DNA from: Polyangiaceae bacterium
GTDB lineage: Bacteria > Myxococcota_A > Polyangia > Polyangiales > Polyangiaceae
Reading direction: 5' to 3'
Length of the DNA: 64,000 nt
NCBI GenBank assembly: GCA_025937785.1
Contig: JAICQQ010000018.1
Location: 3,412-67,411 of the forward strand
The number at the start of each line of letters is the position of its first letter. The stretch's first letter is position 1. The notes under the pieces are model-generated. The model was not told the DNA's origin, ran no database searches, and saw only the letters and a list, made by a program, of their open reading frames with translations. A program made the position numbers and the translations under genes. Positions 1,235 through 55,664 of the stretch are shown here, piece after piece.

Positions 1235-1300
1235 CGGCGCTCGCTAGGGTATTTTACGCGGATTTGACTAGGCAAAAGACCTTAGGCTGCTGACACACAC

Positions 1301-3414: not shown

Positions 3415-3418
<4 letters not shown>
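1301..3418 (+). CDS. glgX: glycogen debranching enzyme GlgX (GH13)
   Basis: 705 aa. N-terminal CBM48-like segment (GATWDGEGVNFAIFS) and GH13 conserved regions VILDVVYNHT, DGFRFDLA, LIAEPWD, FVACHDGF. Confidence 0.92.
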
Positions 3419-5637
<2,219 letters not shown>

Positions 5638-6641: not shown

Positions 6642-6714
6642 CTCGAAAGCATAGCTGACCGACCGCGCGTCGCCCAGCAGAGCGGGCTACGAGAGCTTTC
6701 GGGTGCTTGCGGGC

Positions 6715-21232: not shown

Positions 21233-23326
<2,094 letters not shown>

Positions 23327-32476: not shown

Positions 32477-33607
32477 CTAGCTGACGTCGGAGAGCAGGGG
32501 GAACCGAATGGTAGCCACCGTTCCTCCTCCGGGCCGGGGAGCGAGGTCCAATGTGCCCCCGTGCTTGTGAACGATCGAGTGCGCGATGCTCAACCCCAAT
32601 CCAGTCCCTTCACCGATGGGCTTGGTAGTGAAGAACGGTTCGCGCACGCGGTCGCGCAGATCCGCGGGGATACCGTGCCCTGAGTCAGCCACCGTGATGA
32701 CGAAGTCCCCCACGTCGCGCGCGGTCGTAAGCCAGATCGTGCCGGATTCGTGGATCGCGTCCATGGCGTTCGCGACGAGGTTCATCACCGCCTGATTGAT
32801 GAGGCTTGGATAACAATCGACGAGGTCCGGCTCGCCAAATTCCGCTAGGATGTCGATTCTGCCCAAGCAGCGGTGTTCGACGATTGTGAGGACGGATTGA
32901 ATGGATTCGCGCATGCTGACGACCTTCCGCTCACCCTCGTCGAGGCGGGAAAAGGTTCTCAGTTTCACGACCAGGTGTTTGATCCGCTGTGCCCCGAGCT
33001 CACTTTCGTGGAGCCGGTTCATTGCTCGGTCAAGCAATTCTGCGGCGGCTACTGTGACGGTCGTCCCAAGTTCCGTGCGGGCGCGCGACAGACACTTTTC
33101 GATGGTCTTGAGGTGCGAGATGATGAAGGCAAGAGGGTTGTTGATCTCGTGAGCGATGCCGGCGACGAGCTCGCCCAGCGAAGCCATCTTGGCCGCCTGG
33201 ATGAGCTGCGTCTGCTTCTGCTTCAGCTCGGTGTTGGTCGTCGCGAGCACTTCGTTCAAGCGCAAGAGCTCGAGGTTGGCCTCCCGGTACCCACGGAAAG
33301 ACATTTCGAAAGGGGACAGGAACTCGCGGTAGAAGTTGGTGATCGCAAGCGCAACGACGGATTGCTCGGCCGGCGACGCCGTCAATACGGCGTCACGAAA
33401 CGCGGCGTCATACAGCAGCAGGACGTCTAGGATGCCGAAGTCCGCGGCGAGCGCTTGCCGGCCGAGATCGTAGGCTCGGCTGAGCGACTCTTCTGTTTCC
33501 TCGTTCAGATGCTCGGCCAGGGCCTGCCTGTAGGCGTGGTCCAAGTTATCGTTCATCGCAGCCCACCATCCGGTATGACGGACGCTTTCCTTCTGCGGGC
33601 CGCTCAC
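32477..33607 (-). CDS. cytoplasmic sensor histidine kinase
   Basis: H-box [17 protein letters not shown]-box [11 protein letters not shown]1 DSGHGIP, G2 GTGLGLSI. No TM segment. The start may be 33556. Confidence 0.9.
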
Positions 33608-33637
33608 GAACTCTGTCGCGCGGACCTTCTTGACGGC

Positions 33638-34057
33638 TCATTGCGACCATTTCTTCATCGTGACCGTGGTTCCAACGCCACATTTCGATTCGAGCTCGAA
33701 CTCATCGACCAGGCGCTTTGCCCCCGGTAGTCCGAGTCCCAATCCGGTGCCGGTCGAATAGCCGTCGCGCATCGCGGCCGCGGGGTCTTCGATCCCCGGC
33801 CCGTGATCTTCGGCGGAGATCAGCAGACCGCGCCGCCCCCCTTCATCGAGGCCACGCAGCAACACCGTACCCTTCTGAGCGTAAATCACGATATTGCGAG
33901 CCACCTCCGAAATCGCCGTCGCCAAAAGCGCCTGATCGGTACTCGAGAATCCCAGCATTCGGGCCAACTCGCGTCCTCGCTGCCGAGCGATGACGATGTC
34001 CCGCTCGCTTTCGATCGGAACGTTGACCTCCGCTGACAGGGACGGTGTCAGCGCCAC
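33638..34057 (-). CDS. anti-sigma regulatory factor-type Ser/Thr kinase (RsbW/SpoIIAB-like HATPase)
   Basis: ISEVARNIVIYA (N-box-like), ISAEDHGPGIED, GTGLGLGLPGAKRLVDEF. 139 aa. Lies 30 nt upstream of the histidine kinase. Confidence 0.8.
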   Translation of the reverse strand: MALTPSLSAEVNVPIESERDIVIARQRGRELARMLGFSSTDQALLATAISEVARNIVIYAQKGTVLLRGLDEGGRRGLLISAEDHGPGIEDPAAAMRDGYSTGTGLGLGLPGAKRLVDEFELESKCGVGTTVTMKKWSQ

Positions 34058-34804: not shown

Positions 34805-36007
34805 ATGAGAATCGTACCTGGAGCCTTGGGCTCAGTGGCCTTTGTTTACGCGACGACGGTCGGCGCAACGGTAGAACCACCGGCCGTTTCGGACGCACGC
34901 AGCGCGGCCCTGGGCAGTACTGGCGTCGCCTACTCCGACAGCGCTGCCGCCGTGTATCACAACCCGGCCGCCCTTTCGGGCGTCGAGCGCGGGCTGGTGA
35001 CGTTGTCCGTGTCACCATTCTTTCCGAAACTCCGCGCCCCGATTGGAGGTACCGAAGAGGACAGCGACCGGGGTTTCTTTCCTATGTTCCTGGCAGGGGG
35101 CGCCTATCGACTGACCGATGAGTTGGTGCTGGGCGTGGCCGCGTACCCGGTGCTGGGCTTTGGCGGCGAATACTCGAATCTCAGCGCCCTGGGGGGTGAA
35201 AGCCTGTCCGTGGCAGCCGCGACCTTCGAAGCGTCACCTGCGGTCTCTTACGCCATCACGGACAGGGTTTCACTCGGGCTCGGTTATCGAGTGACCTACA
35301 TGACTCAGGATGTGCATCAGGTCACCCCCGCGATGGGCCCAGGTGGTGACCCCGTCCTCGTCGCGTCCGACGTGAGCCTCTCCGGTATGAATTTCCTCGG
35401 CGTTCACGCTGGCGTCTTGGCCCACGTTGCCGACGGAACACGCCTGGGGTTGACCTACCGCAACAAGGTGACCATCGACTTGGAAGGAGAGTTCGAGTCT
35501 GCAGGCACCGAGCTCGACGCGAGCTCGGAGTTCGCAGCACCGCACACGTTCAAACTCGGCTTGGCGCAAGAACTCTTGGATGCGCAGCTGATGCTGGCCG
35601 TCGACTTGAAGTACGCGCTGTATGCAGAGTCCAGCGAAACGACATCGACCACCATCGAAGGGATCGGGACCACCGAAACGCCCCTCGATTGGAACAATTC
35701 GCTCGCAGCCGGGCTTGGCGTTGAATACCGATTGGCGAACGACGGGCCTCGGCTTCGACTGGGCTACGGCGCCACGCAAAGCGCCACGTCCGAGGACTAC
35801 CCTCAGCCCTTCCTGGCTCCCCCAGGTTTCATCCATTCCGTGCACGCTGGGGCCGGAGTGCAGCTCTCGGCGTTGGAGCTCGACCTCGGCGGGTTCTACA
35901 TGTGGAGCGGCAGCGAAGTAGAACCTGCCGCGGATTCGGGCGCCGAAGCAGGCGAGTACGCGATCAACGCCTACGTCTTCGCGGTCTCTGCGACCTACCG
36001 CATGTGA
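34805..36007 (+). CDS. FadL/OmpP1/TodX-family outer-membrane channel for hydrophobic compounds
   Basis: GGAGGGA SD. N-terminus ..SAALGSTGVAYSDSAAAVYHNPAAL matches the family signature (G.GGA..A..DA.A...NPAGL). Alternating beta-strand pattern through to the C-terminus. Confidence 0.7.
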   Translation: MRIVPGALGSVAFVYATTVGATVEPPAVSDARSAALGSTGVAYSDSAAAVYHNPAALSGVERGLVTLSVSPFFPKLRAPIGGTEEDSDRGFFPMFLAGGAYRLTDELVLGVAAYPVLGFGGEYSNLSALGGESLSVAAATFEASPAVSYAITDRVSLGLGYRVTYMTQDVHQVTPAMGPGGDPVLVASDVSLSGMNFLGVHAGVLAHVADGTRLGLTYRNKVTIDLEGEFESAGTELDASSEFAAPHTFKLGLAQELLDAQLMLAVDLKYALYAESSETTSTTIEGIGTTETPLDWNNSLAAGLGVEYRLANDGPRLRLGYGATQSATSEDYPQPFLAPPGFIHSVHAGAGVQLSALELDLGGFYMWSGSEVEPAADSGAEAGEYAINAYVFAVSATYRM

Positions 36008-36057: not shown

Positions 36058-37167
36058 GTGAGCCAGCAGCAGATCAAAGGCCAGCGGGTGCGGGTCCTCA
36101 TCGTCGACGATTCAGCCACGGCACGCGTGGCCTTGCGCGGCGCGCTCGGATGCGACCCCAGCATCGAGATCGTGGGCGAAGTCCAGCGCGCCGAGTCGGT
36201 GCTCGCGATGGTCGAGCGGCTGAGACCCGACTTGGTGACGATGGACTTGTATCTGGGTGCTCACAGTGGCGTGGATGTCGCCCGCGAGATCATGCAGACC
36301 CTTCCGACGCCAATCATAATGGTCACGGGGGGCGATCCGAGACACCCAACCCTGGTCTACGATGCGCTCCGAGCCGGAGTGATGGAGGTCGCGGGAAAAC
36401 CTCCGTCGCCTCACCACGCCGACTACGAACACAGCCGCCAAGCCCTCGCGCGCACCGTCAGGACCCTCGCTCGAGTCCCGGTGATTGCCAGACGAAGTGC
36501 ACGGTACCCTGGCGCCCGCGAGTCAACCGACACCTCTGCACCAAAGTGGTCCAGACCGAGCGCGCTGCCAAGCCGGCACCGAGTTCGATCGGACGCGACC
36601 CGGCGTCCCACTCCGCGGCTCATGGTACTCGGCGCCTCGACGGGCGGGCCGCCCGTCCTTTGCCAGATTCTGAGAGGAGTTCCGCGCGGTACTGCCGTGC
36701 CGATCGTCCTGGTGCAACACCTCGCCACGGGGTTCACGGACGGGTTCGCGCGCTGGATGGAGGCTCAGACCGGCTTGAGCGCCGTAGTCGTGCGCGAGCG
36801 TACCCGTCTCGAGGGGGGGCGTATTCACATCGCCGGTGAAGAGCGTCACCTGCAGGTCACCTCGCAAATGTACGTCGAGCCCGACGAAGGCCCCGCCGTG
36901 AACTTTCATCGGCCGGCGATCGACGTACTGTTTCGATCGGCGGCGCGACATTTCGCCGGCGATGTGCTCGCGGTTCTGTGTACGGGCCTCGGCGCCGACG
37001 GGGCCGAGGGCATGCGGGCCCTGTTCGACGCCGGCGCGCGGACGATCGCTCAAAGCTTGGAGAGCTGCGCCGTCGCCAGCATGCCGCGACGCGCCTTGCA
37101 GCTCGGCGCGGTGAAGCGCTGCCTCGCGCCCGAAGAAATCGCCGCCGAGCTCAGGAGCCTTGCCTGA
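36058..37167 (+). CDS. cheB: chemotaxis protein-glutamate methylesterase CheB (REC + methylesterase)
   Basis: REC VRVLIVDDSATARVAL..LVTMDLYLG. Catalytic Ser/His/Asp motifs VLGASTGGPPVL, VLVQHLATGF, TGLGADGAEGM. GTG 36058 avoids overlap with the FadL-like gene. Confidence 0.9.
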   Translation: MSQQQIKGQRVRVLIVDDSATARVALRGALGCDPSIEIVGEVQRAESVLAMVERLRPDLVTMDLYLGAHSGVDVAREIMQTLPTPIIMVTGGDPRHPTLVYDALRAGVMEVAGKPPSPHHADYEHSRQALARTVRTLARVPVIARRSARYPGARESTDTSAPKWSRPSALPSRHRVRSDATRRPTPRLMVLGASTGGPPVLCQILRGVPRGTAVPIVLVQHLATGFTDGFARWMEAQTGLSAVVVRERTRLEGGRIHIAGEERHLQVTSQMYVEPDEGPAVNFHRPAIDVLFRSAARHFAGDVLAVLCTGLGADGAEGMRALFDAGARTIAQSLESCAVASMPRRALQLGAVKRCLAPEEIAAELRSLA

Positions 37168-37206: not shown

Positions 37207-38184
37207 TCAGCGCTTACCGCGAATGTAGGTCTGCAACGCGTCTGCGGTGTCACGCAGCGAAAGGACGGCCTGCTCTACCTGCCCTGTCGCGGCAGCGGAC
37301 GCTTGGCCTCCCTCCGCCACGTTCATCAAGGCTTCGGAGATCTGTTCGATGCCAGCCGATTGCTGACCAACGGTAGCGGAGATCTGCCGTGCATTGTCCA
37401 CGTTCGTTCCCAGTAGCTGGAGCAGGTCCTTCATTCTCGTGGAGGCCTCGTCCAGGGCGCGCCTGCCCCCCTCGGCACGCCCGACGGCTTTCCAGATGCG
37501 TTGAGCCGACTCGCGACTTTGCTCAGCGAGGCTGCGGATCTCGGAGGCTACGACGGCAAACCCACGGCCGTGCTCGCCCGCCTTGGCCGCCTCGACTCGA
37601 GCGTTGACTGCCAACAGGTTCGATTGGTTTGCGAAGTCGCGAACCGACTCTACGATTTCACCTACTTGACTGATGAGCTCCAAAACCGCACGCGCGTCTT
37701 CGACTGCTTGCATGCCCTGTTCGCCCTTGGTCTGAACGTCCGAGCTCGTGCCCATGACCTCTTGAGCGAAGGCGGCCGCAGCGTTGCTGGTCTCGGTCAA
37801 TTCTCTGATGGTCGCGCTGATCTCGGTGACGGTTGCCGACTGCTGTGCCGCCGTCGCGGCCGTTTCCTTGGCCGTGCCGGACAACTCCACCGTGCTGGCC
37901 AGGATCGCCTCTGCGTGTTTCTCCACGCGGGTCACCACGGTGCGGTACAGCATGAACAGGATGGGTACCGTCACGACAGCGCCCAGGCCGGCTAGACCGA
38001 GCATCGTGCGCAGATCGCCCTCGGCCCCCATGATGAACGTCAAGAGGCAGTTGAAGGCAATCAACGACAGGACGATGCTGAAGAGCCGTGTGGCGAGACC
38101 GCTCCGGAAACGCAGGTACACCCCCCCAACGACGGCTACGAGACAACCAAGCAGGACAACCACGAAGACTGTGTAAGAACCCAT
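37207..38184 (-). CDS. methyl-accepting chemotaxis protein, membrane-embedded minimal type (no periplasmic or HAMP domain evident)
   Basis: AAGGAGA SD before ATG 38184. About 95 aa of closely spaced hydrophobic helices, then a signalling domain with hairpin-tip motif NLLAVNARVEAAKAGEHGRGFAVVASEIRSLAEQS. Confidence 0.9.
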   Translation of the reverse strand: MGSYTVFVVVLLGCLVAVVGGVYLRFRSGLATRLFSIVLSLIAFNCLLTFIMGAEGDLRTMLGLAGLGAVVTVPILFMLYRTVVTRVEKHAEAILASTVELSGTAKETAATAAQQSATVTEISATIRELTETSNAAAAFAQEVMGTSSDVQTKGEQGMQAVEDARAVLELISQVGEIVESVRDFANQSNLLAVNARVEAAKAGEHGRGFAVVASEIRSLAEQSRESAQRIWKAVGRAEGGRRALDEASTRMKDLLQLLGTNVDNARQISATVGQQSAGIEQISEALMNVAEGGQASAAATGQVEQAVLSLRDTADALQTYIRGKR

Positions 38185-38227: not shown

Positions 38228-39724
38228 TCAGCCCGCTCCCCAGAACCGATCGTGCAATGCGACGGTCGCCACACGGTTTCCTTCGAGCACCGAGTCCAGA
38301 AACTGGACGTGCCGTTCGATGCCCGCTCCGCGGACGGTGAATCGCAGTAAACACGCGCGCTCCTCGACGTAGGCCCCGACGGCCTGTTCTAGACGCTGGT
38401 GCGCATGCTCCAGGGCCGTGGCTCGCGGACAGCCTTCCTCCTGGGCGATGCACTCCACCAGGTTGATCTTGCCTTTTCTGGCGTCGCGTTCGGTGGAAAG
38501 AATGTCATTCACCCAGAATATCACGCGAGTGTTCGCCGCCTCGACCCGCTCCAGGGCCTCCCAAGCCTCGGGTCCTTCGATCTCTGCGCCTTCGGTCAAG
38601 CGCCAGAGCTCGATGTAAGGAAAATGGGCGATCAGGTGCTCGCGCTGGACCAGGTACTCGTCGAGCGCCGGAACCCCTCGACCCCGCTGGAGCCACTCTG
38701 CCTCCCATTCGAAGGCATCGAACATGGCCAGCATACGGCGCCGGAATCGATCGAGGGCCACGCCAGGCAGCTCTGCAGCGAGGCGAGTCAGGAAGTTCTG
38801 GGTCGCTCTCGACTCCGGCCGCGGCAAAGGGTCGTTCCCCTGACAAACGCCGCGAACGTCGCGTAGAGTCGATCGCTTGTAGTCGTCAGAAGGAAGATCG
38901 TTGAGGCACAAAAACCAAGCCAGATACTCCGTCGCGAGCTCTATGCCTCGTCGTGTCGGCTTCGGCGCTGAGCAATAACGCGCGTACTCCGCCGCCACCT
39001 GGACATAGCTCCTCCGAGCGAAGCCAGTTTCTTCTACCCAACGCGAAAGGGTACGATTCACGACCTCCATCTCTTCGGTACCCAAAGAGTACAAACGGAA
39101 AGGCAAGGCGCGCACGCCTCTGTCGTCGTCTGTCGTGCTCGGTGAACAGTCAGCGTTATCTCGTTCCTTCATGGCGAACTCCGTATCGTTGGTACTCCAG
39201 CACTCCGCAGCCAGCTTCGAGACTTCGACGAGCGGAAGCGACCCTCCCGGTTCTTGGACGACCGCGACGAGGAATTTCGCAAAGCACACGCCGGCCGCTG
39301 GCTCGTCGACATCCTCGAGGTTCACCGTCAAAACATCGACGACCTCGTCGACTAGGAGGCCCACTCGCCCCCACGCGGTGCCGCAAATCACGATCAGCTC
39401 ACTTGAGGCGATCACATGAGGCTCGCCCTCGAACCGCTGCCGGACGTCGACCACGACAATGCTCGTTCCATGATGGTTCAGTGCGCCGACGACCCACGGC
39501 GCCGACTCCGGAAGCGGCGCGAGCTCGGCTACCGGCACGACCACGTCGACGGATTGGATCGGCAAACCGAACCTCTGCTGCTCCGCGCGGCATACCAGGA
39601 GCGTGATCTTCGTGTCTCCTAGCTGGGTGCGGCCGATCCTAGTCACTAGCTCTCGGCGCAGCCCGACGAGCTCTGCCTGCAAGCTGCCCAGTCGCGCCAG
39701 CAACGCGGCTACTTCTTGCGCCAT
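38228..39724 (-). CDS. CheW domain fused to class-I terpene-synthase-like domain (variant metal-binding motifs)
   Basis: Residues ~38-175: CheW-like (LLVCRAEQQRFGLPIQSVDVVVPV..PWVVGALNHHGTSIVVVDVRQRF..VGLLVDEV). Residues ~205-498 align by eye with bacterial sesquiterpene synthases: LATEYLAWFLCLNDLPSDD vs ..MSWFFLFDDLFD.., DEYLVQREHLIAHFP vs ..YLAMRRHTIG.., VIFWVNDILSTERDARKGKINLV vs ..LLLNDIASLEKEEARGE.N.V. The start overlaps the cheA stop by 16 nt. Confidence 0.75.
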   Translation of the reverse strand: MAQEVAALLARLGSLQAELVGLRRELVTRIGRTQLGDTKITLLVCRAEQQRFGLPIQSVDVVVPVAELAPLPESAPWVVGALNHHGTSIVVVDVRQRFEGEPHVIASSELIVICGTAWGRVGLLVDEVVDVLTVNLEDVDEPAAGVCFAKFLVAVVQEPGGSLPLVEVSKLAAECWSTNDTEFAMKERDNADCSPSTTDDDRGVRALPFRLYSLGTEEMEVVNRTLSRWVEETGFARRSYVQVAAEYARYCSAPKPTRRGIELATEYLAWFLCLNDLPSDDYKRSTLRDVRGVCQGNDPLPRPESRATQNFLTRLAAELPGVALDRFRRRMLAMFDAFEWEAEWLQRGRGVPALDEYLVQREHLIAHFPYIELWRLTEGAEIEGPEAWEALERVEAANTRVIFWVNDILSTERDARKGKINLVECIAQEEGCPRATALEHAHQRLEQAVGAYVEERACLLRFTVRGAGIERHVQFLDSVLEGNRVATVALHDRFWGAG

Positions 39725-41940
39725 CGCTCTCCCCTTCCGTAGAGATGCCGCTCCACCGCGAGCAGCAGCTTGTCATGGTCGAACTGTCCCTTGACCAGGT
39801 ACTCGTCTGCACCCGCCGCCGCCCCCGCCTGAATATCGCTCTCGCGGCCGCGGCTCGTGACGAGCACGATGGGCAGGCCCTTACGCAGGGGGTCCGTGCG
39901 TATGCGGCGCGTCAACTCGAGGCCGTCCATGCCCGGCATTTCGATGTCGCTCAGCAACAGGTCGAACTGCTTTTGCCGTAGCTTGTCCCACGCTTCGACG
40001 CCGTCCACGGCGACCTCGACAGCGTAGCCGGCGGAGGTCAGGATGTTACGCTGCAGCGTTCGCTGGGTGAGCGAATCGTCGACGACGAGAATGCGTAGCG
40101 AGGTCGAAGTAAGTCGGCTGCGCCCGGCCTGACTCGGCGTGGTGGCGGTATTCAGGAACCTCTTGCGCAGCAGAAAGCCGATCTCCAGCGCGATCGCCAG
40201 CGAGCCGTCGTCCAAAACCACCACGCCGTGCATCCCCTGGATGCGCCGAATGTTCCATGGGAGGCGGCGGGTCACGCATTCCTGCTGCTCCAGCACTTCA
40301 TCGACGACCAAGGCCATGCGCTCGCCGGCGCAGTCGAGCACCACCACGTCGAGGTGTCCATGCACGTCCCGGATACGCGGGTCGTCGTCACGCAGTGCCA
40401 ACACAGCGATCGGTTCGGGATCGTTTCCCTCCAGTACGGGAAAGCCGTTGAAGGAGCGCACCTCACTGCGATTCACGCGTAGCGCTCGCTCCACGTAGAT
40501 GGTCGGCAGCATGTAGACCGTGCCATCGACCTTTACCAGCAGGCCCGTTGTCGCCAGTACGCTGACCGGGACCTCGAATCGAAAGCAGGTTCCCATGCCG
40601 CTGCCCGCGGAGCTGAGCGTGCACGTACCTCCGACGGAGGCTAGCTCCTCTCGTACGGCAGCGAGACCAACACCCCGGCCACTGATCGAACTCAGCTCCT
40701 TCGCCGTAGAGAAGCCGTCGAGAAAGAGCAAGTCCAACTTCTCTTGGCTCGTCATGCGCTCGCTTGCTTCTTTGCTCACGATGCCGCGTTCCACCGCTGC
40801 TTTCGCCACCTCGTCGGCGATCGAGCCTTTGCCGTCGTCCCTGATCTCGATAGCGACTCCGCCGCCCGACATGCGGGCGACGATGGACACGGAACCGGCA
40901 TCGGGCTTACCGAGCAAGTGTCGCTCTTGCCAGGGTTCCACGCCATGGTCGACTGCGTTACGTAGCACGTGAACGATTGGGTCGCGGATGTGTTCGAGCA
41001 CGCGCTTGTCCACCGCGGTGTCGCCCACGTCCAGCGTAAGGCGTACCTTCTTGCCCAACGTTTCAGCCGCTTCGCGTACGACCCTGCGCCATTGCGGAGC
41101 GATGGTGGACAGCGCCACCGTGCGAATCTTGTGAATCTCGAGCGTCAGATCGTCGACCACGCGCGCCATGGCGGAGTGCGCTGCGCGCCCGCTGGTCAAG
41201 GCGTGACGCAACATACGCCCAGTAGCTTCGTCGGTGTCGTGACCGCGCGCGACTTCCGTGAGCGATTCGACGTGCTTGCCCCACGCTCCGCGAAGCCTCA
41301 GCAGTTCATCGAGGTGATTGGCGAGCGCGTCCAGGCGCTCGGTGCTTACCCGCAGGTAGTTGTTCGATTGCTCTTGGGGTCCGGGAGCGCTCTCATGGGG
41401 TTCAGCCGCAGGAGACGAAGCATCGGCGCCCGCGAGCGCGGAAGCGTCCGCGGCGGTTCCGCGCTCAGTGCTCGAGGCGCTCCCGCTCTGCCCGCCACCA
41501 TGGTCTCCTACTGGGCCACTGGATCCGTGCATCGACACGGCGGCGTCGCTCTCCTGCGCCACCGACTCGAGTCGTTCTATCAGACGGCTGACCGTCGAAG
41601 CATCGCTCACGCGCGTCTGCTCCGCGAGGCTTTGCATGGCAATCACGGCAGCTTCGAGCACGCGGATCTGCTCTGGATTCGGCAGGGCCGCGCGATGTTG
41701 CAGCAGGGCCAGCACGCTCTCGAAGGCGTGAGCAACCTGGGACAGCTCATTCAAGCCTACTGAGCCGCTCGCGCCTTTCAGATTGTGGGCCAGGCGCATC
41801 GCAGCTCGAATCGTCTCACTCAACCTGGGCCCTTGCGCGCTCGGCAGCTCGGCGATCAAGCTTGCCAGACCATCGAAGAGCTCCCCGACCTCGGAGCGAA
41901 ATGCTTCGATGAGCTCTCGCATCAGGTCGTCGTCTGACAA
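39709..41940 (-). CDS. cheA: hybrid CheA histidine kinase with C-terminal receiver domain
   Basis: HPt (AHNLKGASGSVGL), N-box HVLRNAVDHGVE, G-boxes DDGKG / GRGVGLAAV, CheW-like P5 domain, C-terminal REC (LRILVVDDS..LLLSDIEMPGMDG..LVTS..K). GGAGG precedes TTG 41940. Confidence 0.92.
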   Translation of the reverse strand: MSDDDLMRELIEAFRSEVGELFDGLASLIAELPSAQGPRLSETIRAAMRLAHNLKGASGSVGLNELSQVAHAFESVLALLQHRAALPNPEQIRVLEAAVIAMQSLAEQTRVSDASTVSRLIERLESVAQESDAAVSMHGSSGPVGDHGGGQSGSASSTERGTAADASALAGADASSPAAEPHESAPGPQEQSNNYLRVSTERLDALANHLDELLRLRGAWGKHVESLTEVARGHDTDEATGRMLRHALTSGRAAHSAMARVVDDLTLEIHKIRTVALSTIAPQWRRVVREAAETLGKKVRLTLDVGDTAVDKRVLEHIRDPIVHVLRNAVDHGVEPWQERHLLGKPDAGSVSIVARMSGGGVAIEIRDDGKGSIADEVAKAAVERGIVSKEASERMTSQEKLDLLFLDGFSTAKELSSISGRGVGLAAVREELASVGGTCTLSSAGSGMGTCFRFEVPVSVLATTGLLVKVDGTVYMLPTIYVERALRVNRSEVRSFNGFPVLEGNDPEPIAVLALRDDDPRIRDVHGHLDVVVLDCAGERMALVVDEVLEQQECVTRRLPWNIRRIQGMHGVVVLDDGSLAIALEIGFLLRKRFLNTATTPSQAGRSRLTSTSLRILVVDDSLTQRTLQRNILTSAGYAVEVAVDGVEAWDKLRQKQFDLLLSDIEMPGMDGLELTRRIRTDPLRKGLPIVLVTSRGRESDIQAGAAAGADEYLVKGQFDHDKLLLAVERHLYGRGERWRKK

Positions 41941-42036: not shown

Positions 42037-42585
42037 CTAAACCTCTGCCCGATCATCCACTATGAGACGTGGATCTTCCAAGAAGCGCTTCGCGTCCAAG
42101 ATGGAAACCAGATCGCTCGAGACGGCTGCGATGGGCCTGCCGGTAGATCCGAGCGTCGCGGCTAGCTCGTGGCTCAACTGATCCTGGCGAAAATCGACGA
42201 ACCCGAGCACCTCGTCCACGAGGACCCCGAGCAAGCCACGAGGTCCCTCCAAGACAGCCAGGGCGCCGGACTCGGCGACGTACGGTGCGTCGAACCAGTG
42301 ACCCAGTTGCGCCACGGAGATCAGCTCTCCACGCACCTGTGCCAGGCCAGCCAACCATCGGGGCGCCTGCGGCACGGGCGTCAGCTTGACGTTGTAAAAC
42401 GCACCCCACAGTGACTCTATCGGAAGTCCGATTCGCTCGGCGCCCAATCGAACCACCACGAATGATAGCACCACCTGGTCCCGATCGAGCGTCAGGGGGC
42501 GAGCGAGTGCCTCGGCGCGACAACGGAGCACCGACGCGTCGCCTTCGGTCAACTTACTCCTTTTCATTCCTGCCAACGGTACCAC
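42037..42585 (-). CDS. cheW: CheW coupling protein
   Basis: 182 aa. FVVVRLGAERIGLPIESL..RWLAGLAQVRGELISV..LGVLVDEVLGFVDF is typical CheW. Confidence 0.85.
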   Translation of the reverse strand: MVPLAGMKRSKLTEGDASVLRCRAEALARPLTLDRDQVVLSFVVVRLGAERIGLPIESLWGAFYNVKLTPVPQAPRWLAGLAQVRGELISVAQLGHWFDAPYVAESGALAVLEGPRGLLGVLVDEVLGFVDFRQDQLSHELAATLGSTGRPIAAVSSDLVSILDAKRFLEDPRLIVDDRAEV

Positions 42586-42658: not shown

Positions 42659-43729
42659 CTACTTCGCAATTGCGCCGAGCTGACTTGCGAGCGATGCATT
42701 CACGGAGCATGTACCGAGCGAGGCTGCGCTCGCCAACGCTTGCGCCCCTACCACGGTGCTCAACGCCTCACTGCCGAAGTAGCGCGGTGTTCGGCCATAT
42801 CGAAAGAACGGTGAGATCGCCCACGAGCCGTCCTCGCGGCGTGCGCTCGCGACCACCAAAAGGTCTTCCCCCGCTTGCAGGCCGACGTTGGCACATGCGG
42901 CGACGCGCAGCGCCCGATCGAAGCAGGGCGTATCGGCTCCTTGGCGGTCGAGGAGGCGCTGGCAGAGGGGTTCGAGCAAGGCAGCGCGAGGTCCGGGAAA
43001 GTCACGCGCCAGCCTTGAAACGAAGTACAAGAAGACATCGGGCGAAGGGTAATAGCGTGTCCCGAACAGATACGCGTCGGACTTCAGAAACTCGGTGAGA
43101 CATCGCCACGAAGGCGCCGCTTCTTCGAAGCGCTGAAGTTGACAGAGAAGGTACATGACGTTGGCTAGAACACAGTGGTCGATTCTGCCGCGGTGTTCGG
43201 GGCTCGCTCGATAATACACCTCCAGGATCCCGGCTTCGTTGGTGTTGGTCAGCATGGCGTCTACGCTTTGGCTGACTCTAGTTTCACCGGTGCCGAGTCG
43301 GAGACACAGCGAATGCGCCACCGCGGTGCAATCGAGGTCTGCGTCCAGGAGCGCCCGGTCCTGAAAGAAATGAACGAAGCCTTCTTCGTTGAACGCTCGT
43401 CGCATCAGCTGCAGACAGTTCTCGAGAGTGTCACTCGTGGCACCGGCGTCCATCAGACATTGCGCGATGATCCCCGTCGTAAACACTTCGGGCGGACTGC
43501 GGTACGGTCGAGAGAAGTCTCGATAGTCGGAGAGATAGCTGGGGAATCCAGTCTCCGCGTCGAACTGCCTCTGAATGAATGCCAGCGACTGTTCGAAGTC
43601 TTGCAGGGCGGCGTCATGGCGCGCCGGAACCACCACGCTGTGCTTCGGAGTACCCCGCATTTCCAGCCCCGACATGTAGTACATGATACTCGAGGCGCGC
43701 CTGGCGCGCAGGTCAACAATTCTTGACAT
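42659..43729 (-). CDS. alpha/alpha-toroid (prenyltransferase/squalene-cyclase-repeat, class-II terpene-cyclase-like) protein, tentative
   Basis: LLDADLDCTAVAHSL echoes the class-II cyclase DxDDTA motif. Helix-pair patterns are present (TTGIIAQCLMDAG, CVLANVMYLLCQL, RVAACANVGL), and a repeat-like REDGSWAISPFF lies near the C-terminus. Codons visibly use more A/T at third positions than neighbouring genes. The ORF opens with TTG at 43768; ATG 43729 is the alternative start. Confidence 0.45.
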   Translation of the reverse strand: MSRIVDLRARRASSIMYYMSGLEMRGTPKHSVVVPARHDAALQDFEQSLAFIQRQFDAETGFPSYLSDYRDFSRPYRSPPEVFTTGIIAQCLMDAGATSDTLENCLQLMRRAFNEEGFVHFFQDRALLDADLDCTAVAHSLCLRLGTGETRVSQSVDAMLTNTNEAGILEVYYRASPEHRGRIDHCVLANVMYLLCQLQRFEEAAPSWRCLTEFLKSDAYLFGTRYYPSPDVFLYFVSRLARDFPGPRAALLEPLCQRLLDRQGADTPCFDRALRVAACANVGLQAGEDLLVVASARREDGSWAISPFFRYGRTPRYFGSEALSTVVGAQALASAASLGTCSVNASLASQLGAIAK

Positions 43730-43965: not shown

Positions 43966-44328
43966 ATGGCTCAGGTACTCGTAATCGACGACGATCCGCT
44001 GTTTGCTGCGCTGGTGAAGATTCGACTCACCGCGGCGGGGCACGAAGTCATGTACAACGAGGGCCCCTTCGGTGCGCTCACGGCAGCGCGACACGGAGCC
44101 TACGAGTTGATACTGATCGACGTTCAGATGCCAGGCATAGAGGGCCCTCAGCTCGTCGATTGCTTTCGAAGCAGGGGGAACCCCGGCTTGAGAATCGTCC
44201 TCATGAGCAGCTTACCCGAGCAACAAGTGATTGGGCTGGCGGCGAAGTCTGGCGCGGATGCTGCGTTCTGCAAGACCACCGGTCTCGAGAAGCTCGCGGG
44301 CATCGTCCAGTCGGTTCTCGACAATTGA
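43966..44328 (+). CDS. cheY: single-domain CheY-like response regulator
   Basis: MAQVLVIDDDP...LILIDVQMPGIEG...VLMSS...K. 120 aa. Divergent from the Che operon. Confidence 0.85.
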   Translation: MAQVLVIDDDPLFAALVKIRLTAAGHEVMYNEGPFGALTAARHGAYELILIDVQMPGIEGPQLVDCFRSRGNPGLRIVLMSSLPEQQVIGLAAKSGADAAFCKTTGLEKLAGIVQSVLDN

Positions 44329-44377
44329 GCTCTACGACGCACCTACCATCCTCGGTCAGGGTCCAACGAGACGTGCG

Positions 44378-45655
44378 ATGACTCTATCCACGATGTTGCA
44401 GAGCGCCATCACCAAGCGATTCGGACTGAGACCGAGACACGACTGGGCCAAGAGCATCGAGCAGGCCATCTCGCAGCTGGCGGACGAACGGCAGCTACCG
44501 CGTGCTCGAGTCGAACGTGACCTCCCCGACGATCCAAACCTGCTGCGCGCGGTCGCCGGCAAGCTCACCGTGGAGGAGACGTTCTTCTTCCGCTTTCCGG
44601 TACAGATCGAGCAGGTGGTCGACCACGTGGCTCAGCTCTTGCCCCATCGCCCCCGCGCAGCCGTCACGGTGTGGTCAGCAGGCTGCGCTTCTGGAGAAGA
44701 GCCGTATAGCGTGGCCATGGGGCTTCACGGGCGGCTGGGCGCATTGCCGGACAACCTAGCGATTGTCGGCTGCGACATCAGCGCGGTCGCCATCGAACGC
44801 GCGCGTCGTGGAATCTTCGGGAACTGGTCGTTCCGCGGGGTTTCCGAGCAGATTCGACAGCTCTACTTCGAAAGCTTGCCTGCCGACAAATCCCGCATCG
44901 CGGCGGTTTTTCGTAGCTCGGTGCGCTTCGAGCACCTCGCAATTCACGAGATGGCGCACAGGCTCGGACCGACCAGCGTCGATGTGGTGTTGTTCAGGAA
45001 CGTGGGTGTCTACTTCGATGAGGCTAGCCTCGCGCGCTGCTTCAAGCAGTATCATCGGGCGCTTGCCCCGGACGGTCTGTTGGTGTTGGCCGCCACCGAT
45101 CCGACGCCGCCACCGGAGTTGTTCAAGCGTGTGCGCTCGGATAGCATCGGAATTTATCGTCGCGCCGAGCAGTCCGAAGTCACGAAGTCCCGTACGAAGG
45201 CGCGCACGGTTCCGAGGCCAGCGCCCGATCCGGTCGGGAGGCGTGACGCTATCAGGACATTGCGACCACCACCGGTCGTCGAAGCCTTGGCGCTCGGTGA
45301 TCGCGGCCAGCTCAGCCAGGCGATCGAGGCGGCCGATCGGGCCGTAGCCGGGCACGTCGACGACCCTCACGGTTTCTTCGTGCGCGGGCAGCTGCTGCTG
45401 GCTAGCGGACAGCCGGTCGCGGCCATCGAAGACTTCAGGCGGGTCTTGTTTCTGCGAGCTGATGACAGGCTCGCTAGGTATTGGTACATCGTCGCTCTCC
45501 ATGGGGCACGCGAGGTGGGGCGCCTGGGACCCCAAATAGCCGAACTGCGCCGCCAGCTCGCCGGCGCTCTCGAGGACGAGATCTTGGAGGACGGACGCAC
45601 CTCGGCGAGCGAGTTACGCGCGGCTCTGATCACCTTCGAAGGGCTTTGCGAATAG
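44378..45655 (+). CDS. cheR: chemotaxis protein methyltransferase CheR with C-terminal TPR-like extension
   Basis: CheR N-domain, SAM site VTVWSAGCASGEEPYSVAM, VVLFRNVGVYF. The C-terminal ~130 aa are helical-repeat-like. Confidence 0.9.
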   Translation: MTLSTMLQSAITKRFGLRPRHDWAKSIEQAISQLADERQLPRARVERDLPDDPNLLRAVAGKLTVEETFFFRFPVQIEQVVDHVAQLLPHRPRAAVTVWSAGCASGEEPYSVAMGLHGRLGALPDNLAIVGCDISAVAIERARRGIFGNWSFRGVSEQIRQLYFESLPADKSRIAAVFRSSVRFEHLAIHEMAHRLGPTSVDVVLFRNVGVYFDEASLARCFKQYHRALAPDGLLVLAATDPTPPPELFKRVRSDSIGIYRRAEQSEVTKSRTKARTVPRPAPDPVGRRDAIRTLRPPPVVEALALGDRGQLSQAIEAADRAVAGHVDDPHGFFVRGQLLLASGQPVAAIEDFRRVLFLRADDRLARYWYIVALHGAREVGRLGPQIAELRRQLAGALEDEILEDGRTSASELRAALITFEGLCE

Positions 45656-45697: not shown

Positions 45698-47080
45698 TCA
45701 GTCGTCCTCGGGTCCCTTGCCGATCCAACCTCGGCGCCAGAAGTAGATCAGCATCACGGCGGCGATCGCCAGCATGATCACCAGCAGAGCCGGGTAAGCC
45801 CACGGCACCTTGAGCTCCGGGATGTGCTGGAAGTTCATGCCGTAGACGCCCGCCAGGAATGTCAGCGGAATGAAGATGCTGGTCATGACCGTCAACAGCT
45901 TCATGACCTCGTTCATGCGGTTGCTGCTGACGGACAGGTAGGTGTTGGTGAGCTCCCCCACGAGGTCGCGATACGATTCGATCACTTCGGCAATCTGTAC
46001 GGTGTGGTCGTGCACGTCGCGCAAGAACACCTTGGTTTCTTCCTGAATCAGCGGTGCCGGGTGGCGCAGCACCGCGGCGAGTGCCTCGCGCTGGGGCCAC
46101 ACGGCTCGCCGCAACAACAGCAGGTTACGCTTGTGGCGCTGGAGCTGTTTCAGGCGTGAGGCGGCGGGGCGCTCGATGATCTCGTCTTCGAGCGCCTCCA
46201 GCTCTTCGGCGATCCGCTCCAGCACTGGGTAGTACCCGTCGACCACGGTGTCGAGCAGCGCATAGGCGAGGTAGTCAGCGCCGAAGCGGCGCAACCGGCC
46301 CTCTGCCGGCTGTATGCGCTTTCGCACTGGCTTCAGCGGATCGTGATGGTTCTCGAGGAACGTCAGCACGAACCCGGCGCCCAGGACCACACTGAGCTGT
46401 TCCACGCTGAGGTCGCCGGCTTCGTCGAACGCCACCAGACGAAAGACGAACAGATACTGCAGCTCCTTCTCCTGATCGTGAAGCTGCTCGTAGACCTCCG
46501 CTTTGGGGCGCTGCGGAACATTGACCACGTCTTCCAGCGCGAGTGGGTGGACGCGAAAATGCGTGCCGATGCTCTGCAACAGGTCGACGTCCGCCAAGCC
46601 GCGCACGTCCAACCAGAGCTTGTCGTCCCCGCCAGGGCTGGGGAGCTCGTCCCCGTCTTCGAGAGCGTGCTCCAAGAGCCCCTGCAGGCCGAAGCGGATG
46701 ACGTGCACCTCCGTGGGCTCTGCCTCTTCGGACGCGGCCAGCGTTCCCGGGCTTGCACCCACGGGAGCACGGCGTTTTTTTCTGAAGAGCAACACTGACG
46801 GGCGGGAAGCGTACTCCAGCCGGCGGCGGGTCGGTATGGGCATCAACCCTGGCGGCGAGCCGGTAGGGGTATCGTCTCTCGCGGCGGATGCGGCTCCCTC
46901 TATGTCTGCCAGCAGGGCCGAAGCCGGCGGCCGAAGGCTGCGATCCCGCGGAGCAATTGCAGCCCGAGGATTCGTGTCGCCGTTCGCGGCGGGCGTGGAG
47001 CCACCCGTTGGCGAGCTGGTGCTGGTCGTGGCGCTGCTGGTGATCGCGAGGTCGCGCTTCACTGCTTCTGGATCGGGCAT
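45698..47080 (-). CDS. corA: CorA-family magnesium/cobalt transporter (with Ser/Thr/Pro-rich N-terminal extension)
   Basis: C-terminal FLAGVYGMNF (GMN motif) flanked by two TM helices. Cytoplasmic domain WLDVRGL..HPLALEDV. ATG 47080 keeps high third-position GC; ATG 46843 is a shorter alternative. The ORF part above 47080 is rejected. Confidence 0.8.
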   Translation of the reverse strand: MPDPEAVKRDLAITSSATTSTSSPTGGSTPAANGDTNPRAAIAPRDRSLRPPASALLADIEGAASAARDDTPTGSPPGLMPIPTRRRLEYASRPSVLLFRKKRRAPVGASPGTLAASEEAEPTEVHVIRFGLQGLLEHALEDGDELPSPGGDDKLWLDVRGLADVDLLQSIGTHFRVHPLALEDVVNVPQRPKAEVYEQLHDQEKELQYLFVFRLVAFDEAGDLSVEQLSVVLGAGFVLTFLENHHDPLKPVRKRIQPAEGRLRRFGADYLAYALLDTVVDGYYPVLERIAEELEALEDEIIERPAASRLKQLQRHKRNLLLLRRAVWPQREALAAVLRHPAPLIQEETKVFLRDVHDHTVQIAEVIESYRDLVGELTNTYLSVSSNRMNEVMKLLTVMTSIFIPLTFLAGVYGMNFQHIPELKVPWAYPALLVIMLAIAAVMLIYFWRRGWIGKGPEDD

Positions 47081-47429
47081 GGGCAACTGAAAGGACGCCA
47101 CCACCGGCGACGAAGCAGCCGACGGAACGCTGACAGTCCGAAGCTCGCCACGAATTGCTGGCGCAAGCGGGCACTCGCCACGATTCACGTTCGATGAAGC
47201 TGGGTCACCACGCTGACCCTCGTGGTACTCCACGGCTCTCGAGAATACCGAGACATTCAGATTGCTTCCGCCATGGACGATGGCATTCGGACCTCGTGAA
47301 CCGCCTCGAGGACGGCGTGCGTGGACTGTGAGCGAGCGTGGTCTCGACGTTCGTCGGCTAGCGAGGGTGGTCGCGTGCCGTCTCGTAGGGATTTGTGTCT
47401 GCGCTTGAATCAGGTACGCTTGCCGTGGG

Positions 47430-55663: not shown

Positions 55664-55664
55664 C

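Follow-up and report, generated by a model that had tools for sequence, protein, structure and literature searches.

A CheW–terpene synthase-fold fusion protein encoded in a myxobacterial chemosensory cluster together with a class II terpene cyclase and a FadL-type channel

Proteins of the CheV (CheW-REC) and ParP types use a CheW-fold scaffold to bring a second domain into the receptor–CheA array. Most Che pathways with an alternative function, notably the many of myxobacteria, have no known inputs. Bacteria also make many terpenes, including geosmin and drimanes, whose function on the side of the producer is mostly obscure, and to our knowledge a bacterial receptor pathway dedicated to a terpene has not been established. 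The two-step logic of terpene pathways, with a class II enzyme followed by a class I enzyme, is outlined in PMC12232559. Among the Polyangiaceae, β cyclases also occur as standalone, active enzymes, and the mono-β cyclase of Sorangium converts farnesyl diphosphate (FPP) into a cyclic diphosphate, for the release of which a separate phosphatase is needed (bioRxiv 10.1101/2025.09.20.677545).

In the window, i.e., the 64,000-nt stretch of a Polyangiaceae genome (contig JAICQQ010000018.1) analysed here, a Che operon whose receptor (MCP) lacks a sensor domain encodes what is predicted to be a complete two-step terpene cassette, along with a channel for hydrophobic compounds, and a natural fusion physically ties the terpene subunit to CheW (Table 1). 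The locus suggests an apparently undescribed link between terpenoid chemistry and bacterial signalling, which is testable genetically. A preliminary description had recognised a CheW domain in the N-terminal part of the fused protein and a synthase-like C-terminal half, and both were recovered in Pfam searches. CheW was matched with an E-value of 2.3e-21 and 76.3 bits (cut-off 23.5) over profile positions 2–134 of 138, and Terpene_syn_C_2 (PF19086) was matched at residues 303–449 with an E-value of 3.8e-25 and 89.2 bits (cut-off 23.7), the latter match covering profile positions 50–197 only. The start of the ORF (39724) overlaps the cheA stop (39709) by 16 nt, as had been described, and the mcp gene starts 43 nt downstream of the ORF. 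The CheW2 orthologs share a helix of about 40 aa ahead of the CheW domain, as seen in the alignment with the separately encoded CheW2 of two relatives (L001 and L007). The only other long CheW match of the first search, P0004, was rejected as a triple-CheW protein without a synthase domain.

The class I character of the C-terminal part (TSα) was indicated by several comparisons. In NCBIfam, a number of bacterial sesquiterpene synthases matched the fused ORF below threshold and no equivalog level was reached, and its sequence matches in the PDB were T-muurolol synthase (4e-11), epi-isozizaene synthase and pentalenene synthase. Modelled with AF2, residues 185–498 had a pLDDT of 90 and a pTM of 0.88, and in Foldseek the model was superimposed with a TM-score of about 0.8 on 9m25 and on T-muurolol, epi-cubenol and pentalenene synthases. 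The best 50 PDB matches of the model were class I synthases throughout (TM 0.71–0.81, identity 17–24%). The pLDDT was below 50 for the first 16 residues, and the fusion linker, of which the model spans residues 185–205 only, is likely flexible. As in CheV and ParP, the second domain of such a protein could modulate or exploit coupling within the array. Unlike in these proteins, the passenger is a class I terpene-synthase fold of about 300 aa and not a receiver or a ParC-binding region, and the fusion is lineage-specific, with two genes in the relatives. No Response_reg domain was detected by Pfam in the 498-aa protein, and it is therefore not of the CheV type (CheW-REC).

Table 1. Positions of the cluster genes and of the domains and motifs of the fused protein in the window.
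Feature	Position	Strand	Basis and remarks
Fused CheW2::TSα ORF, 498 aa	38228..39724	-	ORF, Pfam CheW and Terpene_syn_C_2; stop codon 38228-38230
CheW domain, residues 42-172	39209..39601	-	Pfam PF01584
Linker, residues ~173-205	39110..39208	-	Old CheW2 C-terminus and old TSα N-terminus; junction alignments
TSα, class I terpene-synthase α-fold, residues ~206-498	38231..39109	-	AF2, Foldseek, PDB matches
Ancestral TSα start codon, M185	39170..39172	-	In frame inside fusion; GGAG 6 nt upstream
Variant Asp-rich motif NDLPSDD, residues 275-281	38882..38902	-	N275 replaces first Asp, S279 third
R361, putative pyrophosphate-sensor Arg	38642..38644	-	Aligned to conserved Arg of T-muurolol synthase
Variant NSE triad NDILSTERD, residues 406-414	38483..38509	-	N406, S410, D414 replacing Glu
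R493-F494, in place of C-terminal RY pair	38243..38248	-	Tyr replaced by F494
FadL/TodX-family outer-membrane channel for hydrophobic compounds	34805..36007	+	Pfam Toluene_X, E 4e-24
CheB methylesterase (REC and CheB_methylest)	36058..37167	+	Pfam; annotated start, gene call in L011
MCP, 325 aa, three N-terminal TM helices	37207..38184	-	Pfam MCPsignal, hydropathy
CheA-REC hybrid kinase (Hpt, HATPase_c, CheW-like P5, receiver)	39709..41940	-	Pfam; stop overlaps fused ORF start by 16 nt
CheW1, first CheW paralog	42037..42585	-	Pfam CheW, E 7e-18
TCβ, standalone class II terpene cyclase β domain (AstC-like_C), 341 aa from annotated start	42659..43684	-	Mechanical ORF to 43768
DLDCT motif of TCβ, putative class II general acid	43325..43339	-	Aligns with DLDTT of AsDMS
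CheY-like single-domain response regulator	43966..44328	+	Pfam Response_reg; divergent from operon
CheR-TPR methyltransferase	44231..45655	+	Mechanical ORF; Pfam CheR E 2.4e-34, TPR_16 E 4e-7

The origin of the fusion was traced by comparison with relatives. The cheW and TSα genes are separate in six related lineages, the loci being L001–L006, L007–L010, L013, L015, L016 and L022. The two genes overlap by 17 nt in L001–L006, where the cheW stop of L001 lies 17 nt downstream of the TSα ATG, and by 4 nt in L013. They are 35 nt apart in L007–L010, and in the non-overlapping lineages as a whole the gap, as called, amounts to 35–234 nt. The sequence upstream of the old TSα ATG is ACGGAGTTCGCC-ATG in the window versus ACGGGAGGTCACC-ATG in L001, and the junction reads ACGGAGTTCGCCATG in the window. 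Relative to the separate genes, a net loss of 1 nt at the junction merges the cheW2 and TSα frames. The fusion is a genuine, young and lineage-specific merger of two neighbouring, translationally coupled genes, and TSα may also be made separately from the retained internal start and ribosome-binding site. An identical fused protein is encoded in NCBI Polyangiaceae MAG and Logan assemblies; the NCBI MAG contig (L011) differs from the window by 3 mismatches and the Logan assembly (L012) by 2, both without gaps. All three assemblies, which differ by 2–3 SNPs, carry the same junction, so assembly error does not explain the single frame; the three may come from one environment. The preliminary description had raised the possibility that the two halves are separate genes or an artefact of assembly: here they form a true single ORF, and ancestrally they were two genes.

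The fusion may be considered a frameshift accident with no effect or a mildly deleterious one, or else an error of sequencing or of the consensus, with the terpene genes being mere passengers in the che operon and no coupling between the two. The CheW fusion of TSα was found in one lineage only, none was present among the best 150 of 578 significant relatives, a single net 1-nt change was enough to make it, and the intact internal start and ribosome-binding site would permit separate TSα synthesis. Such an absence of coupling is nevertheless very unlikely, as the che–terpene–FadL gene set is kept in seven lineages at about 30–65% protein identity despite rearrangement of the FadL–TCβ block, two lineages have overlapping cheW2 and TSα genes, three SNP-differing assemblies show the same junction and neither domain is damaged, since the linker was made from two unstructured termini.

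In the seven lineages, TCβ, TSα and the FadL-type channel are encoded in one che cluster comprising CheR-TPR, CheY, CheW, CheA-REC, CheW, TSα, the sensor-less MCP with three TM helices and CheB. The position of CheW2 between cheA and mcp is kept across these lineages, and cheW2, TSα and mcp are contiguous in all of them. The FadL–TCβ block is rearranged between lineages, and FadL overlaps TCβ by 4–8 nt in L016 and L022. Neither hydropathy nor the ortholog alignment revealed a periplasmic, HAMP or PAS domain in the MCP; its signalling domain has methylation motifs of the QQ/EE type and its orthologs are 64–98% identical. The fastest-evolving components of the cluster are TSα and CheW2 (31% and 42% identity in a comparison that gives 64% for the MCP), which is unusual for a structural component of the array. 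The CheY orthologs of L001, L007 and L015 have 120 aa, and the true start of CheR-TPR is probably near 44375. Intergenic terminator and promoter scans of the cluster gave nothing above the shuffled expectation, and a scan of the 26 longest ORFs beyond the cluster yielded no gene for isoprenoid supply.

CheR-TPR is given in PMC3447774 as a marker of alternative-cellular-function (ACF) pathways. The presence of CheR-TPR and of the CheA-REC hybrid, two ACF-type features, suggests that the cluster is of this type, an assignment made on these two proteins. It resembles the myxobacterial ACF clusters (PMC3447774) in having CheA-REC, CheR-TPR, CheB, CheY and non-Che genes within the operon. No report of a terpene cyclase pair and a FadL channel as accessories of a che cluster was found in the literature searched, and the search returned no paper joining CheA, chemosensory and terpene synthase and none on CheW with a terpene synthase.

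The second terpene protein of the cluster, TCβ, whose gene heads the operon, has the features of a class II cyclase. Its AF2 model (pLDDT 89.8) is a single (α/α)6 β-domain fold, which Foldseek aligned with the β domain of the drimenol synthase AsDMS (TMq 0.80, rmsd 2.1 Å, E 3e-18, 28% identity), and its profile matched AsDMS (1.8e-68) and AstC (2.5e-41) in the PDB. The PF28380 domain is carried by P0154 and 33 homologs. The D, D, C and T of the DxDCT motif are invariant in 26 TCβ homologs, and the GTRYYP sequence aligns with the phosphate-binding R415/Y416 of AsDMS; a motif of the DxD(D/T) type has the general-acid role in class II TCβ cyclases (PMC12232559, PMC13244436). TCβ shares the single β-domain fold, the DxD(T/C)T motif and the phosphate-binding RYY with AsDMS, AstC and the mono-β cyclase of Sorangium cellulosum. 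No HAD-like phosphatase domain is present in its 341 aa, which consist of the β domain only, and in this respect it resembles the standalone Sorangium type.

In place of a HAD domain, the diphosphate partner of TCβ, unlike that of the HAD-TCβ proteins AsDMS and AstC, appears to be a class I-fold protein, either separate or fused in the β-α or α-β order. The TCβ and TSα genes are adjacent in L018 and L014, and eight natural TCβ–TSα fusion proteins with both domain orders were identified, matching the TCβ profile with E-values of 1e-70 to 1e-112. These arrangements indicate that the TSα clade partners with standalone TCβ, and the conservation in the TSα cluster of TCβ and FadL, neither of them noticed in the preliminary description, makes a cyclised substrate of TSα likelier than a linear prenyl diphosphate; the substrate of the pair is probably C15. 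The arrangement resembles the labdane-related and αβγ two-step pathways, where a cyclase makes a cyclic diphosphate, an α-fold enzyme acts next and the genes are adjacent or fused. It differs from them in that the β domain of TCβ has no γ domain, TSα has no canonical Asp-rich motif and the pair is split by che genes in seven lineages. No description of a β cyclase with a class I-fold diphosphate partner was found in the terpene-cyclase literature searched, and the TSα-type proteins partnered or fused with single-β-domain class II cyclases appear to be an undescribed family. A synthase encoded near TCβ in L017 (Nannocystaceae) was not counted as such a pair, being an outgroup enzyme with canonical DDxxD and NSE motifs.

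In its α-helical fold, in the sensor Arg and in the first two residues of the NSE triad (N and S), TSα agrees with the bacterial class I synthases 9hqi (T-muurolol synthase), 9m25 (a Streptomyces type I diterpene synthase), 1ps1 (pentalenene synthase) and 3kb9 (epi-isozizaene synthase). Unlike these, it has NDxxS/P-D instead of DDxxD/E, NDxxSxxxD instead of the motif ending in E, and RF instead of RY, and it is partnered with the TCβ cyclase, whereas the known enzymes act alone on a linear substrate. The preliminary description had noticed the Asn in place of the first Asp and the Asp in place of the last Glu, and both readings are correct. Alignment of NDLPSD with DDQCDE of T-muurolol synthase pairs D280 with the Glu, so the third Asp is replaced as well and the N275-D-L-P-S279-D280 sequence does not conform to the DDxx(D/E) of helix D. 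The third NSE ligand, D414, keeps a carboxylate that is one carbon shorter than that of Glu. Of the three Mg2+ ions, two normally have the first Asp of DDxxD as their key ligand, and its replacement means that TSα may be a poor catalyst or no catalyst at all.

The substitutions are not peculiar to one repurposed domain. Both the change of D to N and that of E to D are shared by every che-linked ortholog, and NDLP is invariant in four of these. Orthologs with as little as 41% identity keep ND and NDxxSxxRD unchanged, and so does the 21-sequence family, in the alignment of which the N, D, S, R and D of the NSE region show no variation. ND was found in 21 of the 23 closest cluster representatives, whose C-terminal pair is RF in 7 cases and RY in 16. 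R361 is invariant in the 21-sequence family and an Arg occupies this position in 128 of 129 relatives. Among the relatives, 53 of the 56 whose first motif is not DD have an Asp at the third NSE position, compared with 18 of 73 with DD, a co-variation which points to coordinated remodelling of the site and not to decay. The substitutions are typical of a clade of proteins of about 300 aa sharing ND and NDxxSxxRD. Some of its members lie outside che clusters, where they adjoin a class II cyclase or form one protein with it. The first motif of the TCβ–TSα fusion proteins is more degenerate still (IE, GD, NI). The role of the α domain in this family may not be classical ionisation. The family raises a question for terpene enzymology, namely how a cyclic sesquiterpenyl diphosphate would be processed without a canonical DDxxD motif.

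These data bear on the idea, the main one of the preliminary description, that TSα is a pseudo-enzyme sensor. Without turning it over, TSα would bind either a diphosphate (prenyl or cyclic-terpenyl) or a terpenoid taken up from outside. Its open-to-closed transition would then be relayed through CheW2 to CheA, and the fused protein would act as an adaptor in the manner of CheV, with a domain for ligand binding replacing the receiver. This agrees with the replacement of the first and third Asp of DDxxD while the diphosphate-contacting R361, N406, S410, R413 and R493 are kept, with the change of RY to RF in part of the che-linked clade, with the MCP having no sensor domain of its own, with the unbroken contiguity of cheW2, TSα and mcp, and with FadL, which suggests uptake of a hydrophobic cue. 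However, the same substitutions occur in non-signalling relatives encoded beside TCβ or fused to it, so that the change of D to N and of E to D is by itself no argument for adaptation to sensing. The che-linked TSα proteins have lost no further site residues relative to the clade, except for the change of Y to F in the RY pair of most of them, and the TCβ product needs a partner that removes the diphosphate, for which the cluster holds no other candidate. A sensor of this kind is rather unlikely.

In the mechanism proposed here, TCβ would protonate and cyclise FPP to a cyclic (drimenyl-like) diphosphate, as would be expected of a homolog of drimenol synthase, of AstC and of the Sorangium mono-β cyclase that has been assayed. 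TSα, placed on the array baseplate through CheW2, would bind this product and remove its diphosphate group, a step for which it is the natural candidate. By Rosetta-stone reasoning, the fusion would reveal an interaction that takes place without covalent linkage in the relatives. The cue read by the sensor-less MCP/CheA module would be a lipophilic terpenoid made by TCβ and TSα or the occupancy of TSα by the TCβ product, and FadL would pass the same compound across the outer membrane, so that it could act between cells. That the terpene pair is part of the Che pathway, with TSα docking on the array via the second CheW, is as a whole a matter of even chances. The tethering of the synthase-fold domain to the CheA–receptor array, already suggested in the preliminary description, is a fair reading of the fused protein. 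The data show how the locus is built, how the fusion arose, which traits mark the family, that TSα partners with TCβ and that the cluster is conserved; physical docking in the relatives, catalytic competence and the direction of information flow are inferred. In the most specific form of the proposal, which concerns a dedicated Che pathway of a group of Polyangiaceae-like bacteria, TSα would be an integral array subunit through its own CheW and, together with TCβ and FadL, would make and perceive a self-produced, possibly intercellular, drimane-type sesquiterpenoid; such a terpenoid-gated array is possible, if doubtful. If true, it would be the first case in which an enzyme fold forms part of a chemoreceptor array, and the first in which the producer of a bacterial terpene has a defined receptor pathway for it. 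CheW is estimated to lie about 18 nm from the membrane (based on the cytoplasmic hairpin of about 240 aa), so tethering would bring no obvious advantage of proximity for a membrane ligand.

Information could also run the other way, with the Che pathway controlling terpenoid production, the state of the array gating TSα via CheW2 and FadL exporting the product. Myxobacterial che clusters of the ACF type drive non-motility outputs and can hold genes of accessory enzymes, an example of which is the desaturase of the Myxococcus xanthus Che7 cluster. In the present cluster there is no response regulator with an output domain, and the ORF layout and the terminator scan point to co-transcription of the terpene genes with the che genes. 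On the other hand, known Che outputs act via phosphorylated receiver domains and TSα has none, a CheW relaying the state of the kinase to a fused enzyme is without known precedent, and FadL-family channels have been characterised as uptake or lateral-diffusion channels, all of which make terpenoid production as the output of the pathway clearly unlikely.

The distribution of the family was also surveyed. When the profile of the 21-sequence family was used in a word-index search, only four proteins were retrieved, no relatives were confirmed in the metagenome scan and a single locus, L013, was obtained in the genome scan. In L013, the ORF at 4272–5369 was rejected as TCβ because of its poor alignment; by tblastn, TCβ was placed at 1686–2567 and FadL at 410–1603. 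The sequence of L019 ends right after TCβ. The TCβ homologs of Pirellulales pair with UbiA prenyltransferases and not with TSα or che genes.

The fused ORF joins CheW2, the second CheW of the che operon, to a class I terpene-synthase-fold protein (TSα). In Pfam, residues 42-172 match the CheW domain over nearly its full length (E 2.3e-21) and residues 303-449 match Terpene_syn_C_2 (E 3.8e-25; 89 bits, with a cut-off of 23.7 bits), and several named sesquiterpene synthases of NCBIfam matched the protein, all below threshold. Among PDB sequences, the C-terminal 298 residues resembled T-muurolol synthase (4e-11) and also matched epi-isozizaene, cucumene and pentalenene synthases. The AlphaFold2 model of residues 185-498, built from a 21-sequence family alignment, had a pLDDT of 90 and a pTM of 0.88. 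All 50 of the 50 best PDB matches listed by Foldseek were class I terpene synthases (TM 0.71-0.81); a Streptomyces type I diterpene synthase (9m25) ranked at the top, together with T-muurolol synthase. The architecture read by eye in the preliminary description, an N-terminal CheW and a C-terminal class I terpene-synthase-like part, was thus borne out by profile, PDB sequence and structure comparison, with a significant HMM match and a class I fold. The start codon of the fused ORF lies 16 nt inside cheA (39709..41940), an overlap that had been recognized correctly.

Features of the fused gene and of its class II cyclase partner (nucleotide positions within the window)
Feature	Position	Strand	Remark
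CheW2::TSα ORF	38228..39724	-	498 aa
Ancestral TSα start, M185	39170-39172	-	in frame within the fusion; GGAG 6 nt upstream kept
NDLPSDD	residues 275-281 of fused ORF		variant Asp-rich motif
NDILSTERD	residues 406-414 of fused ORF		variant NSE triad
TCβ gene	42659..43684	-	first of operon; 341 aa from annotated start

The possibility that the two halves are separate genes joined by a frameshift or an assembly artefact had been raised earlier. The junction is common to three assemblies, as an NCBI MAG contig (L011; three substitutions relative to the window, no gaps) and a Logan assembly (L012; two substitutions, no gaps) have it in identical form. Because both differ from the window by substitutions yet carry its junction, an assembly artefact is unlikely. 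The NCBI MAG encodes the identical protein, annotated 'chemotaxis protein CheW [Polyangiaceae bacterium]'. The relatives do keep two separate genes. The closest TSα homologs, P0002 and P0003 (80% and 58% identity, respectively), stand alone as proteins of 314-315 aa, with a separate cheW of 186-187 aa directly upstream and the gene order of the window. In contig L001 the junction reads GATACGGGAGGTCACCATGAAAC and cheW ends 17 nt inside the synthase-like gene; in L007 a 35-nt spacer separates the two genes. The window junction, GATACGGAGTTCGCCATGAAGG, is 1 nt shorter between ACG and ATG than that of L001, which brings the cheW and TSα frames in line. The fusion is real but young, the fused gene itself being a strain-level event. 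The linker (residues ~173-205) consists of the former CheW2 and TSα termini and is predicted to be disordered in its modelled portion (pLDDT <50 over the first 16 model residues). Since the ancestral start and its GGAG survive in frame, separate translation of the synthase-like part is still conceivable.

Both substituted metal-binding motifs were found exactly where they had first been read. The DDQCDE of T-muurolol synthase aligned with N-D-L-P-S-D of TSα, with the first and third Asp both replaced; the pyrophosphate-sensor Arg is retained (putatively R361, by alignment) and the C-terminal RY pair is RF. N-D-L-P, N-D-x-L-S-x-x-R-D and R-F were invariant in four che-linked TSα orthologs, at identities down to 41%. 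A profile search covering 1.84 billion cluster representatives revealed 578 TSα relatives at E<=1e-3, of which 21 reached E<=1e-30; almost all are 290-340 aa in length. In the 23 scorable closest representatives, the first motif was ND in 21 and DD in 2, the triad was N-S-D in 22, the sensor Arg was kept in all 23 and the C-terminal pair was RY in 16 and RF in 7. Across 129 scorable relatives, Asp occupied the third triad position in 53 of 56 with a non-DD first motif vs 18 of 73 with DD. This co-variation looks as if selection had reshaped the metal site in a coordinated way, and not as if a repurposed domain were decaying. The substitutions are a family signature. The earlier interpretation was partly supported and substantially widened. 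In a neighbour-joining tree, che-linked TSα genes were spread over several branches of the core clade, not confined to one tip.

The gene heading the operon encodes TCβ, a standalone class II terpene cyclase β domain. A direct Pfam scan of the protein gave no match; its homologs carry PF28380 'AstC-like_C'. The TCβ model (pLDDT 89.8) superposed on the class II β domain of the drimenol synthase AsDMS (TMq 0.80, rmsd 2.1 Å, 28% identity, E 3e-18), with weaker matches to single-domain squalene-hopene-cyclase-like proteins, MstE and Streptomyces drimenyl diphosphate synthase, and the family profile matched AsDMS at 1.8e-68 and AstC at 2.5e-41. D-x-D-C-T, invariant in 26 TCβ homologs, aligned with the AsDMS motif DLDTT, in which the central Asp acts as general acid (PMC12232559, PMC13244436), and GTRYYP aligned with the phosphate-binding R415/Y416. 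An assayed standalone β-domain cyclase of Sorangium cellulosum (Polyangiaceae) converts FPP to a cyclised diphosphate, visible as the alcohol only after phosphatase treatment (bioRxiv 10.1101/2025.09.20.677545). Given this precedent and the motif and fold homology, TCβ very probably has class II cyclase activity and yields a product that retains the diphosphate. Distant TCβ homologs (36% identity) in L020 (9001-11272) and L021 (2449-4532), one from a Pirellulales MAG, are directly followed by a UbiA-family prenyltransferase in place of a TSα gene, which suggests meroterpenoid-type pairing in that branch.

The operon holds a two-protein class II plus class I-fold terpene module. Outside che clusters, TCβ and TSα genes were immediate neighbours in L018 (343 aa followed by 302 aa) and in L014 (324 aa followed by 299 aa, beside a squalene-hopene cyclase gene). 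Eight TSα relatives are long proteins; all of them are natural TCβ-TSα fusions (five β-α, two α-β and a 1029-aa protein extended by a further N-terminal region), matching the TCβ profile at E 4e-70 to 7e-112, with DVDCT in most. Their first α motif is more variable (IE, GD, NI, ND), and the triad ND..S...D persists. This adjacency, fusion and persistence of the triad support the view that TCβ and TSα belong together. Architectures in the drimenol synthase/AstC literature examined were HAD-β, βγ, α and mono-β, and β+α was not found there; the fusions apparently constitute a didomain terpene synthase family that has not been described. In these proteins (P0029, P0036, P0048, P0052, P0073, P0077, P0113 and P0146), the first α motif is often fully degenerate (IE, GD, NI).

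The full set of FadL/TodX, TCβ, CheB, CheR-TPR, CheW1 (the first CheW paralog), CheA-REC, CheW2, TSα and MCP was present in the window and six further distinct lineages (L001, L007, L013, L015, L016 and L022; seven in all), with a CheY-like regulator where the contig was long enough, except in L016 and L013. The order cheW1-cheA-cheW2-TSα-mcp was constant, with tight or overlapping cheA-cheW2-TSα boundaries. FadL and TCβ flank this core in window-type clusters and form a separate pair in L016 (301-2569), L022 (2403-4729) and L013 (410-2567), with FadL immediately before TCβ. The two genes overlap by 4-8 nt in L016 and L022, which implies that a channel of the outer membrane for hydrophobic compounds and a terpene cyclase of the cytoplasm are co-translated; in L013 the genes lie close together. 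Identity between the window and L022, the most distant lineage, was 64% for MCP, 56% for CheY, 49% for FadL, 48% for CheA, 46% for CheR, 45% for CheW1, 44% for CheB, 42% for TCβ and for CheW2 and 31% for TSα. An absence of functional coupling, or an artefact, is very improbable: the gene set has been conserved across seven lineages despite rearrangement, and the three assemblies agree.

The Che operon in which the terpene module and channel are conservedly embedded has an MCP (325 aa) that lacks a sensor domain. This MCP has three predicted TM helices at its N-terminus, for which the positive-inside rule gives an N-out topology, and contains neither a periplasmic nor a HAMP or PAS domain. Methylation motifs of the AAQQSAT and GQQSAG types occur in its strongly conserved signalling domain. 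In the MCP (37207-38184, -), the three-helix membrane module (N-terminal ~85 residues) differs between lineages and keeps a conserved cytoplasmic loop, GLAT(R/K)L(F/Y), that links TM1 to TM2; the Glu of its short outer loop (E55) is invariant. These features may be determinants of within-membrane sensing. CheR carries a TPR region, described in PMC3447774 as a marker of alternative-cellular-function pathways. Two CheR-TPR genes occur in the L022 cluster (1147-2406 and 5812-7080), one beside a CheY-like regulator and FadL.

The one natural covalent CheW2-TSα fusion keeps both domains intact and, by Rosetta-stone logic, TSα would associate with CheW2, hence with the array, in unfused lineages too. 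TCβ would convert FPP to a cyclic sesquiterpenyl diphosphate, TSα would bind this product and remove the diphosphate, and the lipophilic product or TSα occupancy would be the cue for the 3-TM MCP/CheA module. FadL would provide outer-membrane passage for the terpenoid compound; other hydrophobic signals reportedly enter via FadL homologs. As a composite, this scheme stands about evenly between right and wrong. Within it, TSα as an enzyme with a sensed product is somewhat preferred over TSα as itself the ligand sensor, because the clade keeps its conserved site residues just as well where there is no signalling context, and because the product of TCβ requires a partner. What speaks against fast classical catalysis by TSα is its loss of the main Mg2+-bridging Asp. 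A pure pseudo-enzyme sensor is unlikely. Regulation of terpene output by the Che pathway via CheW2 is more doubtful still, as TSα has no receiver domain and precedent is lacking.

CheW-domain fusions (CheV), class II/class I terpene pairs, mono-β cyclases and accessory enzymes in myxobacterial che clusters are already known. Their combination, the CheW::synthase architecture and the ND/RD TSα family partnered or fused with TCβ appear undescribed: the library searched contained no publication uniting CheA, chemosensory and terpene synthase, and broader searches returned only unrelated work. The strain-level fusion points to a conserved, experimentally testable chemosensory-terpenoid module, of which this search found no description.

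Adjoining the FadL gene, an RsbW-like HATPase_c_2 protein (139 aa) and a HisKA/HATPase sensor kinase (376 aa) are encoded at 32477-34057 (-). This pair also follows FadL in L007 and L011; its link to the che cluster is uncertain because L001 lacks it there. Directly after cheR lies a CorA-like Mg2+ transporter (45698-47638, -) whose N-terminal extension is unusually long (~340 aa) and had no Pfam match. Two large proteins with OmpA-like and CarboxypepD_reg-like domains (47430-50687 and 51845-53752, +) are accompanied by long ORFs without Pfam matches (50684-51841, 53756-55663 and 55557-57323). The GlgE-C/isoamylase/GlgB glucan-metabolism genes (188-5637, +) and a membrane H+-pyrophosphatase (21233-23326, +), gene sets containing no isoprenoid-supply genes, are ordinary housekeeping context.
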